In this document: positions 3,191 through 5,628 of the stretch, piece after piece
How the letters are laid out: each line of letters starts with the position of its first letter
Numbering within the stretch: the stretch's first letter is position 1
Source: Escherichia phage vB_EcoM_ACG-C40
Strand: one strand, 5' to 3'
Sequence record: NC_019399.1
DNA: 64,000 nucleotides
Position numbers and translations under genes: made by a program
Notes under the pieces: generated by a model
Databases searched by the model: none
Seen by the model: the letters and a program-made list of their open reading frames with translations, nothing else
What the model was told of the DNA's origin: nothing

Positions 3191-3333
3191 GGATGTAAAC
3201 CGTTTTGTGAAAAAATTTTTAAAAAGTTTTGGGGAATTCTAGGGCAGGGAGGGGAAATCAAAGGATAGGATAATATATTATAAAGGGTAGAAACTAAATG
3301 ATGTCTAGAGAGGCCTGGAAAGGCCTAGATACC

Positions 3334-3360
3334 AAAAAGCCCCAACCTTTCGGTTGGGGC
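3334..3360 (-). terminator. rho-independent terminator (minus strand)
   Basis: Minus strand GCCCCAACC-GAAA-GGTTGGGGC followed by TTTTT. Confidence 0.65.
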
Positions 3361-3364
3361 TAAG

Positions 3365-3673
3365 CCTTGCGGCAACCTTGTCGGGGTTCCACCTGCTAAG
3401 GCAAGTGTTTGTACGAAACGCCGGGATTCGAACCCGGTTATTAAGCAGTTGACGCTACTCAATATTTTTTAAAAGGCCATATCTCGACCATATCCGAACG
3501 TTCCGTCAAAAACGCTACTCGGCTTACGGCAAAGATATTTCCTCGAATCGATAATTCGGTGCGCCGTTTCTGCTGTGATGTAAGGGGACATTAACAAAAC
3601 ATAAAGATTTATTAATGCCAGTCCTTAAACAGGGAACATCAGTCCGACGACTTACCGGTAGCGACCCGGTTTC
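3365..3673 (-). ncRNA. candidate small stable RNA region downstream of tRNA-Arg
   Basis: About 300 nt with no ORF, a tRNA-like T-arm (CCGGG-TTCGAAT-CCCGG on minus strand), duplicated GAGTAGCGT motif, ends at terminator 3334..3360. Confidence 0.25.
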
Positions 3674-4024
3674 TTAATATTCTTTTAAAGCATCAATCTG
3701 TTCACGGCGTTTACGCCATAAATCAATTGCTTCATACGCAGATTCAGCATTTCGAATTAGCCGGCATTTATGTAAAGACTTATGATTTTGATATTGTGTA
3801 GATAATGGAATTGTATCTAAAAGGTCTTTACGATCAAAGTATTCGTAACCATCTAAACCAAATGAACGATTTTTGAGAAATTGCCAATGGCCAAATTCAT
3901 TTTCAACATAAACATAATCTGCATGCTGATAAAGTAAATTAATTACACGTTCAGAAATAGCAGTATCATTATGATTAAAATAGAATGTTAAATCATGAAC
4001 TACTAAATAAACATTACCTTTCAT
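3674..4024 (-). CDS. hypothetical protein (116 aa)
   Basis: Intact ORF immediately 3' of the tRNA cluster. Confidence 0.5.
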   Translation of the reverse strand: MKGNVYLVVHDLTFYFNHNDTAISERVINLLYQHADYVYVENEFGHWQFLKNRSFGLDGYEYFDRKDLLDTIPLSTQYQNHKSLHKCRLIRNAESAYEAIDLWRKRREQIDALKEY

Positions 4025-4042
4025 ATTTTCCTCACTTATAAT

Positions 4043-4118
4043 TGGTCGAGGCAGTAGGGATCGAACCTACGACCCAGGACTTAGAAGGTCCTTGCTCTTC
4101 CTTCTGAGCTATGCCCCG
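4043..4118 (-). tRNA. tRNA-Arg (anticodon UCU)
   Basis: 76-nt cloverleaf folded by hand; anticodon loop CTTCTAA; T-loop TTCGATC; encoded CCA. Confidence 0.8.
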
Positions 4119-4122
4119 TAAT

Positions 4123-4198
4123 TGGGGTGACCGATGGGAGTCGAACCCATGACTACGAGAATCACAATCTCGAGTTCTACCAACTGAACTACGGCCAC
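4123..4198 (-). tRNA. tRNA-His (anticodon GUG)
   Basis: 76 nt; acceptor GTGGCCG/CGGTCAC; anticodon loop TTGTGAT; discriminator C; CCA encoded; no encoded G-1. Confidence 0.7.
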
Positions 4199-4312
4199 AT
4201 TAATACCTACTCCAACAATCATGATGTCTTCACACGAAATTAAGAGAAGAGTGATCAGTTCAACCCCTATAATCGCGTCAAGTAGATATTAATGTGACAG
4301 TTGTCACAAATT

Positions 4313-4387
4313 TGGCGGACGTGATAGGATTCGAACCTATAACCAATCGCTTAACAGGCGATCGCTCTGCCATTGAGCTACACATCC
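4313..4387 (-). tRNA. tRNA-Asn (anticodon GUU)
   Basis: 75 nt; anticodon stem ATCGC/GCGAT, loop CTGTTAA; discriminator G; CCA encoded. Confidence 0.75.
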
Positions 4388-4391
4388 AAAT

Positions 4392-4478
4392 TGGTGGGGA
4401 GTGATGGAGTCGAACCACCCGAGTCGCAATGACAATGAATTTACAGTCCACACCGCTACCTCTACGGGATAACTCCCC
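4392..4478 (-). tRNA. tRNA-Tyr (anticodon GUA), long variable arm
   Basis: 87 nt; anticodon loop CTGTAAA; T-arm GGTGG-TTCGACT-CCATC; discriminator A; CCA encoded. Confidence 0.7.
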
Positions 4479-4490
4479 TAATTCATAATT

Positions 4491-4565
4491 TGGTGGCCCT
4501 GGGTGGAATTGAACCACCATCTGGCGATTATGAGTCGCTTGCTTGAACCTTCCAGCTACAGGGCC
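4491..4565 (-). tRNA. tRNA with CAU anticodon (Met, or Ile if lysidine-modified)
   Basis: 75 nt; anticodon loop CTCATAA; T-arm GGTGG-TTCAATT-CCACC; CCA encoded. Confidence 0.7.
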
Positions 4566-4566
4566 T

Positions 4567-4642
4567 TGGTGCTGATTGACGGAATCGAACCGCCGACCTT
4601 CTCATTACAAGTGAGTTGCTCTACCTACTGAGCTAAATCAGC
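4567..4642 (-). tRNA. tRNA-Thr (anticodon UGU)
   Basis: 76 nt; D-arm GCTC-AGTAGGTA-GAGC; anticodon loop CTTGTAA; CCA encoded. Confidence 0.8.
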
Positions 4643-4647
4643 AAAAC

Positions 4648-4737
4648 TGGCGGAGGCGATAGGATTTGAACCTATGAGTCGCCGGAGCGACTGCCGGTTT
4701 TCAAGACCGGTGCATTAAACCACTCTGCCACACCTCC
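4648..4737 (-). tRNA. tRNA-Ser (anticodon UGA), long variable arm
   Basis: 90 nt; anticodon stem CCGGT/ACCGG, loop CTTGAAA; CCA encoded. Confidence 0.8.
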
Positions 4738-4739
4738 AG

Positions 4740-4813
4740 TCTCCATACAAGGATTTGAACCTTGGACCTCCTGATCCCAAATCAGGCGCTCTACCAAACT
4801 GAGCTACACGGAG
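4740..4813 (-). tRNA. tRNA-Pro (anticodon UGG), CCA not encoded
   Basis: 74 nt; anticodon stem CCTGA/TCAGG, loop TTTGGGA; T-arm CAAGG-TTCAAAT-CCTTG. Confidence 0.75.
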
Positions 4814-4823
4814 TAAATTGAAT

Positions 4824-4897
<74 letters not shown>

Positions 4898-4902
4898 AAA
4901 TT

Positions 4903-4989
4903 TGGTGCGAGAAGTGGGACTCGAACCCACAAGGAAATCATTCCGCAGCATTTTAAGTGCTGTGCCTTTACCAATTTGACCATTCTCGC
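4903..4989 (-). tRNA. tRNA-Leu (anticodon UAA), long variable arm
   Basis: 87 nt; anticodon stem CAGCA/TGCTG, loop CTTAAAA; CCA encoded. Confidence 0.8.
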
Positions 4990-4995
4990 GTTATA

Positions 4996-5628
4996 TTATT
5001 TATTACGTGAAAAAGACTGTTCTATCAATTCTGGACACTTTCGTTCTATCCATTTTCTAGCTTTTTGTGGGCTTATACCTATTATTTTAGCAGCTTTACT
5101 AACCCATCCAAATTTAGAATAATCGATTTTAACTAATTCTTCGTAAATTTCATCAGTTAAAATCTTTTCATTAATATTTACCAGTAAATGATATAATTTG
5201 TTATCATTAGCAATTTTAATGAATCTTTTATAGTTTCCGCCTTTACTTAAACCTAATGAAGTAATTGCAGATGATATAGTAGCCGAATTTAATAATGCGT
5301 TTAAAATTTCTTCATCACTAACATTATAACGCTTTTTATTATTTTTAATATTTTTACCAGCAAAAGTATCAGTTTGCGAATGACAGTTTGGACATAATAA
5401 TCTTAAATTTGATTTAAGATGATTTTTGTTATTTCCATCAATATGGTCTAATTGTAGAACAATATGCTTATTTTGCCATTTTGAAATTTTACAAATTGCA
5501 CACTCATATGGAAAAATATTTTCTTTTATTATTTTGTCTTTTAGCTTTCCTGTACTAAAATTTGGATGTTTTCCTTCAAAAATTTCAGCTAATTTAGTAT
5601 CCATAATATGATTCCCAATTATTAACAA
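4996..5628 (-). CDS. HNH homing endonuclease with C-terminal helix-turn-helix-like DNA-binding region
   Basis: Zinc-finger HNH motif CAICK...LQLDHIDGNNKNH...NLRLLCPNCH; ORF start at 5628 is TTG, first ATG is at 5604. Confidence 0.75.
   Translation of the reverse strand: MLIIGNHIMDTKLAEIFEGKHPNFSTGKLKDKIIKENIFPYECAICKISKWQNKHIVLQLDHIDGNNKNHLKSNLRLLCPNCHSQTDTFAGKNIKNNKKRYNVSDEEILNALLNSATISSAITSLGLSKGGNYKRFIKIANDNKLYHLLVNINEKILTDEIYEELVKIDYSKFGWVSKAAKIIGISPQKARKWIERKCPELIEQSFSRNK
4996..5628 (-). mobile_element. freestanding homing-endonuclease gene abutting the 5' end of the tRNA cluster
   Basis: HNH ORF ends 6 nt from tRNA-Leu. Confidence 0.5.

Follow-up and report, generated by a model that had tools for sequence, protein, structure and literature searches.

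The T4 rnaC/rnaD locus in a T4-like phage: probable orthologues of two small stable RNAs closing the tRNA operon, and a covariation-supported tRNA-like fold predicted for rnaC

The window analysed here is a stretch of 64,000 nucleotides from Escherichia phage vB_EcoM_ACG-C40 (NC_019399.1), and it is a piece of a Tequatrovirus-type (T4-like) phage genome. Judging from sequence comparison, positions 3334-3677 on its minus strand almost certainly carry the orthologues of rnaD and rnaC of phage T4, which would be the final products of the tRNA operon before its terminator. Both RNAs have been described in T4 since the 1970s, and the locus is an already known one, namely the T4 rnaC/rnaD pair in a T4 relative. 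A first-pass annotation of the window had noticed a structured region free of open reading frames (ORFs) at 3334-3673, and proposed that it might correspond to the locus of the small stable RNAs in T4. The near identity to rnaC and rnaD of T4 (NC_000866) and RB10, and the transfer of gene coordinates from these two phages (rnaD 3677..3558, rnaC 3551..3412), indicate that this interpretation was correct.

The region 3300-3700 was used as blastn query against 50,697 phage records. It matched 805 records, 677 of them with at least 80% query coverage, which indicates that the similarity is homology and not chance. The identity to the annotated rnaD (species 2 RNA) and rnaC (species 1 RNA) of T4 and RB10 is about 94–97%. 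In the three-way alignment of the window, T4 and RB10 (alignment A1; 387 columns), the mean column identity is 94%, rnaC is nearly invariant, and the near identity spans both RNA genes, the trailer and the terminator. Gene limits were transferred through A1 from the annotated non-coding RNAs of T4 (rnaC, T4s001; rnaD, T4s002) and RB10, and the gene order in these two annotated records is tRNA-Arg, rnaD, rnaC, terminator. The succession rnaD, 6-nt spacer, rnaC, trailer and terminator is as in T4, and so are the strand, the lengths and the position at the operon end; one extra A is found in the rnaC linker of the window, and its rnaD tail reads ACCG instead of ACCA. The nhmmer E-values are 1e-49 for the window rnaC and 5e-43 for the window rnaD, and rnaC scores 166 bits with our covariance model (R1). 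The parts of the locus are listed below.

3558..3677, minus strand: rnaD (species 2 RNA) orthologue, about 120 nt (T4/RB10 mapping through A1; nhmmer)
3552..3557, minus strand: spacer GAAUUA from rnaD to rnaC, 6 nt (alignment)
3412..3551, minus strand: rnaC (species 1 RNA) orthologue, 140 nt (T4/RB10 mapping; covariance model)
3363..3411, minus strand: 3' trailer with three small hairpins (fold; conservation in T4, RB10 and dhabil)
3333..3361, minus strand: intrinsic terminator of the tRNA operon (hairpin and T run)

Every feature that the first-pass annotation had described in this region is borne out. No ORF of 60 amino acids (aa) or more overlaps 3334-3673, and only mechanical ORFs of 32–45 aa with TTG starts are found there. 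The tRNA-like T arm CCGGG-TTCGAAT-CCCGG is present at 3437..3421 (minus strand), and the strong minus-strand terminator consists of a hairpin (10 bp, 7 GC) followed by TTTTT (3361..3338). The duplicated motif is GAGTAGCGT, which has exactly two copies in the window, both on the minus strand (3452-3460 and 3512-3520), against a chance expectation of 0.14 matches. The extended complementarity is reflected in a folding energy of −50.2 kcal/mol (z = −4.0) for the rnaC segment and in z = −2.4 for the rnaD segment. The alignment to T4 rnaC and rnaD that had been proposed as a check gives orthology over both genes. Two details are adjusted: the region does lie downstream of tRNA-Arg, but not directly, because a 116-aa ORF (3674-4024) intervenes, and the 5' end of rnaD by homology is at about 3677, four bases beyond the end given as 3673. 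The Rfam scan, also proposed as a check, matched no family because neither RNA has one. In Rfam 15, no family for rnaC or rnaD was found by gathering-score or E-value searches: at the gathering score nothing is matched in 3300-3700 and the only matches are array tRNAs (nine of them), and in a permissive search of 3200-4100 the matches in the region all lie far below the gathering score (E = 0.46 to 7.1).

Many GenBank records annotate the rnaC/rnaD locus wrongly. The labels vary from one to four hypothetical proteins to tRNA-OTHER, tRNA-Lys or nothing, and few records name rnaC or rnaD (e.g. RB9, RB10, RB33, Aplg8, ATK47 and T4).

The fold of rnaC was predicted by RNAalifold on 17 sequences. 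Pairs were counted on 36 distinct sequences in an alignment fitted to the covariance model, which favours the structure, and in this alignment 92.7% of the cells are paired and compensatory changes on both sides occur in 33 of 52 pairs. An independent MAFFT alignment (A3) gives the same picture, with compensatory changes in 25 of 45 rnaC pairs. For the 36-sequence alignment, the counts are not reached by any of 500 column shuffles, and the slid controls have 11 compensatory pairs at most. Together with the 11 of 32 compensatory pairs in rnaD, this is conserved structure in relatives, the lack of which the first-pass annotation had named as evidence against small stable RNAs. The covariation supports a predicted four-way junction for rnaC, with a tRNA-like acceptor stem and T arm. 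Its parts are listed below; the numbering of rnaC used in the text starts at its annotated 5' end, which is window position 3551.

3544..3550, minus strand: 5' strand of the acceptor-like stem, CGAUUCG, pairing with 3414-3420
3414..3420, minus strand: 3' strand of the acceptor-like stem, CGUUUCG, pairing with 3544-3550
3421..3437, minus strand: T arm, 5-bp stem with loop UUCGAAU, to which ARAGORN and Rfam tRNA-Sec both align
3410..3413, minus strand: U at the discriminator position followed by ACA, at the place of N73-CCA in tRNAs (comparison across lineages)
3541-3543 with 3474-3476, minus strand: P2, closing the base of P3 (consensus fold)
3479..3538, minus strand: long hairpin P3, with compensatory change in 19 of 21 pairs (helices 3-5)
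3504..3509, minus strand: P3 hexaloop UUGACG, invariant in 31 of 36 sequences
3439..3464, minus strand: hairpin P4, 10 bp, with compensatory change in 9 of 10 pairs
3449..3454, minus strand: P4 hexaloop CGUCAA, exact complement of the P3 loop

In the acceptor-like stem, positions 2-8 of rnaC face positions 132-138 as C-G, G-C, A-U, U.U, U.U, C-G and G-C. The third pair covaries, being A-U here and G-C in most other genera, and in PM2 the stem is fully Watson-Crick, with U-A at both of the otherwise invariant U.U positions and A-U in place of C-G. The 5-bp T stem adjoins the acceptor stem directly, and we infer that the two stack on each other; the third T-stem pair is G-C, U-A or A-U. The 3' end GUACAA is invariant in most lineages, and reads GUCCAA in the Marfa clade and UUCCAU in PM2. 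Thus U-CCA is encoded only in PM2 and the Marfa clade, exactly at the tRNA position, and the other lineages have U-ACA. The D and anticodon arms are replaced by a body consisting of P2 and the P3 hairpin, which has about 27 bp and some small defects, then an A-rich linker of 9 nt, and the 10-bp P4. ARAGORN gives a different fold for 3411-3506, with an acceptor formed by ACGGAACG and CGUUUCGU. KaAlpha, PEi26, NM4.3 and the Marfa clade do not keep this pairing, and the ARAGORN fold was rejected for that reason; what covaries is the pairing between the true 5' and 3' ends.

The two hexaloops of rnaC are complementary at 6 of 6 positions, for which the chance is about 1 in 4096 by our own calculation. 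Both loops are invariant in 31 of 36 sequences while the stems that carry them vary, with compensatory changes in 5 of 5 pairs of the apical P3 helix and in 9 of 10 pairs of P4. Four Marfa-clade sequences have UUGGCG with CGCCAA, a double change from A-U to G-C. In PM2 the P3 loop is GAGACG, and only the core GACG/CGUC is kept. Across the 36 sequences, the putative loop-loop helix is 99.5% paired. This pattern suggests that UUGACG and CGUCAA form a kissing-loop contact, either within one molecule, with P3 folding back, or between two molecules.

The structure of rnaD was counted on 14 sequences; the mean identity in the rnaD alignment A5 is 90%. The consensus fold is 96.4% paired and compensatory changes are found in 11 of 32 pairs, which none of 500 shuffles attains, the slid controls having 5 such pairs at most. 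Two elements stand out at the ends of the molecule.

3654..3670, minus strand: 5' hairpin H1, 5-bp stem with the invariant 7-nt loop GUCGCUA (closing-pair covariation)
3559..3566, minus strand: CGGCG-C-AC, the 3' half of the terminal stem, whose partner is GUCGUCG (3645-3651)

The closing pair of H1 occurs as A-U, G-C or G-U. A plus-strand 'terminator-like' match is this same hairpin read on the opposite strand. The terminal stem is invariant, so covariation speaks neither for nor against it, and three sequences show a switch of an inner pair between U-A and A-U. There is almost no variation in the first 52 nt and the last 20 nt of rnaD; the central hairpin is variable, and it is replaced outright in HY03 and dhabil. 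The last C of the ACC tail is at 3558, and the following base (3557) is G here, compared with A in T4, RB10 and PD112. Although structured, rnaD resembles a tRNA only in its ACC(A) tail. A pairing of the rnaD loop CGCUAC with the duplicated rnaC motif GUAGCG was also considered. It was dropped since the motif lies mostly inside rnaC stems, and since rnaC keeps GUAGCG in genera without rnaD.

Homologues of rnaC were gathered by distant blastn matches, pattern scans and the covariance model R1, and they are found in at least nine Tevenvirinae genera and in the Klebsiella phage Marfa clade. The lineages are Tequatrovirus, Mosigvirus (RB69), Gaprivervirus (TH15), Moonvirus (NM4.3), Gelderlandvirus (Melville), Mosugukvirus (PM2), Karamvirus (UFV01, KaAlpha, Pet-CM3-4 and PS49), Winklervirus (Virsaitis27 and LC53), Kanagawavirus (PEi26, Q7622 and Kosakonia 305) and the Marfa clade. 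In every lineage examined, rnaC is located inside or at the end of the tRNA array. It lies directly between tRNA genes in KaAlpha, Pet-CM3-4, Melville, LC53 and Virsaitis27; for example, the order in KaAlpha and Melville is tRNA-Trp, rnaC, tRNA-Gly. The distribution of rnaD is narrower: detected copies came from four genera only, namely Tequatrovirus, Mosigvirus, Gaprivervirus and Dhakavirus. Dhakavirus dhabil is without rnaC, and its rnaD runs straight into the trailer.

For the pattern scans, the broad pattern TTCGAGGA...GGTTCGANTCC was searched in viral contigs, and a more specific one in metagenome and bacterial genome collections. The matches listed are mostly chance ones, and they were filtered with the covariance model or nhmmer. 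After filtering, the metagenome matches listed include only T4-like copies and one further divergent sequence, and the viral-contig scans supplied three other Marfa-clade sequences (assigned via L143). In bacterial genomes, none of the at least 120 pattern matches listed is an rnaC homologue. A loop-independent pattern revealed no further lineage beyond PM2.

Around the two RNAs, ARAGORN found ten tRNA genes on the minus strand (array 4043-4989), together with one aberrant 'tRNA-???' at 3411-3506 inside the locus itself. The two features next to rnaD are given below.

4043..4118, minus strand: tRNA-Arg(UCU), the last tRNA of the array (ARAGORN, Rfam)
3674..4024, minus strand: 116-aa ORF (351 nt) between tRNA-Arg and rnaD (phrog_3355, E = 3e-53)

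The 116-aa ORF has no Pfam match, and phrog_3355 is a family whose function is not assigned. This ORF is found at the same place in RB69, AV118, HY03 and vB_Eco_EL, and is absent there in T4 and RB10. In the window rnaD does not follow tRNA-Arg immediately, compared with a spacer of 1 nt in T4 and RB10. RB69, AV118 and HY03 are arranged likewise, which makes this a known locus variant and no argument against orthology. As the ORF stands between tRNA-Arg and rnaD, the 5' end of rnaD cannot come from 3' processing of tRNA-Arg here. The stop codon of the ORF abuts the homology-defined 5' end of rnaD. On the other side of the RNAs, the trailer (3363..3411) is conserved in T4, RB10 and the rnaC-less dhabil, where it directly follows rnaD; it behaves as an independent module of the operon 3' end.

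Some variable elements were observed in and near the operon. In some close relatives a 474-nt ORF is located just downstream of rnaC, such as in G9062 (stretch L002, 986-1532) and vB_Eco_EL (stretch L003, 1570-2043), and the window is without it. In G9062 this ORF is flanked by two copies of one terminator hairpin, each annotated −17.10, and the two bracketing copies suggest an insertion that duplicated the terminator. An HNH homing-endonuclease ORF (4996-5628, minus strand; phrog_14736, E = 6e-124) lies directly upstream of tRNA-Leu, at the place where T4, RB10 and G9062 have tRNA-Gln, and ARAGORN found no tRNA-Gln in the whole 64-kb window. The spacer between tRNA-His and tRNA-Asn (4199-4312, minus strand; 114 nt) folds at −32.7 kcal/mol (z = −3.7), includes the perfect hairpin GUGACA-ACUG-UGUCAC and has no Rfam match. 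It may be a further processed RNA or the remnant of a mobile element.

The comparison with known RNAs places rnaC near tRNAs and tmRNA. Like a canonical tRNA, it has an acceptor stem of seven positions made from both ends, a 5-bp T stem, a UUCGAAU loop and a discriminator position, and it sits in tRNA arrays, with CCA encoded in two lineages and ACA in the window. Unlike a canonical tRNA, it is without a D arm and without an anticodon arm with a 7-nt loop, in place of which it has a hairpin of about 60 nt and a 10-bp hairpin with a 6-nt loop, and the acceptor stem of the window rnaC contains two U.U mismatches. The Rfam tRNA model stays below its gathering score for rnaC; the best model in the region is tRNA-Sec with 16.8 bits against a threshold of 47, and this match is borne by the T arm.

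Like tmRNA, rnaC has ends that form an acceptor stem and a T arm around a body that is not tRNA, and its A-rich linker leads into a short stretch with UAA UAA at the end, the latter feature being limited to T4-type sequences. Unlike tmRNA, it is without the G3.U70 pair (3:70 is A-U or G-C), has U and not A at the discriminator position and no pseudoknots, and has 140 nt compared with about 360, with two closed hairpins compared with a loop enclosed by helix P2. ARAGORN made no tmRNA call in the window. Positions 106-116 of rnaC (window 3436-3446, minus strand) share the 11-nt GCUUAAUAACC with positions 117-127 of E. coli ssrA (L409), at the end of the tag frame, and three collinear 7-8-mers (GAUUCGA, AAAAAAUA and CGGGUUC) are common to both (pairwise E = 0.009). 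The identity at GCUUAAUAACC is confined to T4-type sequences, and the resemblance of rnaC to ssrA is a curiosity. Other non-decoding tRNA-like modules are excised by RNase P-type processing, such as the YrlA Y-RNA-like RNAs, the gammaherpesvirus vtRNAs and mascRNA. None of these three matches the region by sequence or by Rfam model, and none of them is known to have a complementary hexaloop pair; E. coli is not known to have the Ro60 partner of YrlA.

The species 1 RNA may be cleaved by RNase III or RNase P. Species I and II share a precursor transcript of about 1.75 kb with the eight T4 tRNAs, which starts from a middle promoter (PMC2330249). According to the summary of earlier work in the SegB paper, the transcript of the T4 tRNA cluster ends after the species I gene (PMC2330249). 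In an omics study of 2022, RNAC and RNAD of T4 were found to be late RNAs, with a check by Northern blot using an RNAC probe (PMC9697503). By orthology with T4, a stable rnaC of about 140 nt is predicted in cells infected with the present phage. In an evolution study of 2025, a single-nucleotide polymorphism (SNP) in rnaD, at genome position 164264, was the only mutation common to 3 of 3 lines of the T4-like phage BW-1 adapted to E. coli ECOR34, and the virulence of BW-1 on ECOR34 rose from 0.17 to 0.98 (PMC12685909). This published experiment ties rnaD to strain-specific infection success, and the SNP may point to a host-specific role of rnaD.

Our best guess is that rnaC is a tRNA mimic, which would be matured by the tRNA-processing enzymes and act on a host protein. 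In this process, rnaC could be excised by RNase P at its 5' end and by trimming at its 3' end, with or without CCA repair. It is known that T4 tRNAs without an encoded CCA undergo CCA repair (PMC11143913). The loop-loop contact might then lock the body of rnaC in a compact shape, or alternatively join two molecules, and the mature RNA would occupy a host protein that recognises the acceptor/T-arm end of tRNAs. Such a protein could be a tRNA-directed defence enzyme, or else a processing or modification enzyme, and rnaC would not act by base-pairing with mRNAs. Next to it, rnaD would be a separate structured RNA, with a hairpin at its 5' end, a stem that closes it and the ACC(A) tail. In its full form this proposal describes rnaC as a dedicated mimic, i.e. 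a CCA-type minihelix on a body locked or dimerised by kissing loops, which serves as decoy, inhibitor or trigger for a host protein binding tRNA ends, with rnaD engaged in the same host-specific interplay; so specified, we consider it rather improbable. In a weaker form of the proposal, it is the tRNA-like domain of tmRNA that rnaC would imitate.

Several observations weigh against the mimic proposal. The T4 annotation ends rnaC at ...GUA and not at CCA, and on this account a CCA end in the E. coli phages is not established. The T loop is UGCAUCC or UGCAUGC in Winklervirus (L005 and L279) and in some Kanagawavirus-type copies (L016, L145 and L154), which keep the T stem and the remaining fold; the rnaC family can thus do without the canonical T loop, and the idea that every tRNA-binding enzyme recognises rnaC is weakened. 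As for the loop contact, PM2 retains only 4 of 6 loop-loop pairs, and the loop covariation is a single evolutionary event, so that it is suggestive and not conclusive. Moreover, if P3 and P4 were stacked end to end like the D and anticodon arms of tRNA, the loops could not meet intramolecularly. Since dhabil is without rnaC and most genera are without detectable rnaD, neither RNA is universally required. T4 mutants in which the tRNA region is deleted can grow on laboratory strains. The role of both RNAs is stated to be unknown in reviews and recent papers (PMC3014915, PMC9697503, PMC12685909).

The main rival of the mimic proposal is a role in cis only, which we take to be unlikely but credible. 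According to it, the RNAs would be structured spacers or trailers that guide or pace the processing of the precursor or shield its 3' end from exonucleases, and their stable accumulation would be a by-product of structure. They are indeed always co-transcribed with tRNAs and stand next to the terminator in Tequatrovirus (PMC2330249), the structured trailer after rnaC is kept even where rnaC is missing, and no target in trans was found in the E. coli genomes or the 64-kb window. However, rnaC is located in the middle of the array in Karamvirus, Winklervirus and Gelderlandvirus and not at its 3' end, so end protection cannot be its general role. Across ten lineages, the invariant loops, the junction strands and the covarying contact between the loops go beyond the needs of a spacer, and a point mutation in rnaD altered host-specific virulence (PMC12685909). 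If the RNAs were instead antisense regulators acting in trans on host or phage mRNAs, their abundance and long invariant stretches (rnaD 1-52 is almost invariant) would be in keeping with it, and the literature speaks loosely of regulatory RNAs (PMC9697503, PMC12685909). We regard this as very improbable: when 5,426 E. coli genomes were searched with both RNAs by blastn (E <= 10), the sole match was one of 27 nt (E = 3), and the best-conserved unpaired hexamers of rnaC are each other's pairing partners. A perfect-complement scan, which covered the 64 kb of the window and would miss short seed pairings, gave only AT-rich 11-13-mers, judged to be consistent with chance in this AT-rich genome.

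Two further explanations were considered. That rnaC is a decayed or insertion-bearing tRNA gene without function might be read from the ARAGORN call, in which 3411-3506 is a tRNA-like gene of 96 nt whose 2-base anticodon is aberrant, from the 16.8 bits with Rfam tRNA-Sec and from the GenBank labels tRNA-OTHER or tRNA-Lys. This is hardly conceivable for an RNA with 33 compensatory pairs and invariant loops over ten lineages, which is unlike a pseudogene, and with no D arm and no 7-nt anticodon loop. It is just as hard to believe that the region encodes small proteins, as the 'hypothetical protein' entries of many genomes would have it. Mechanical ORFs of 42 and 45 aa do overlap the region on the minus strand, but they have TTG starts, one of them crosses the terminator hairpin, and the ORF ends differ in T4 (53 and 39 aa). 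The ORFs that overlap the region in KaAlpha are not related to these and extend into the flanking tRNA genes, and the substitutions track base-pair compensation and not codon structure.

The locus itself adds nothing new, and its significance is that these RNAs from the 1970s are still without an assigned function. What is added to them here is a list of the lineages with or without each RNA, together with a covariation-backed four-way junction predicted for rnaC, a tRNA-like end that carries CCA in some lineages, and a pair of co-varying hexaloops.

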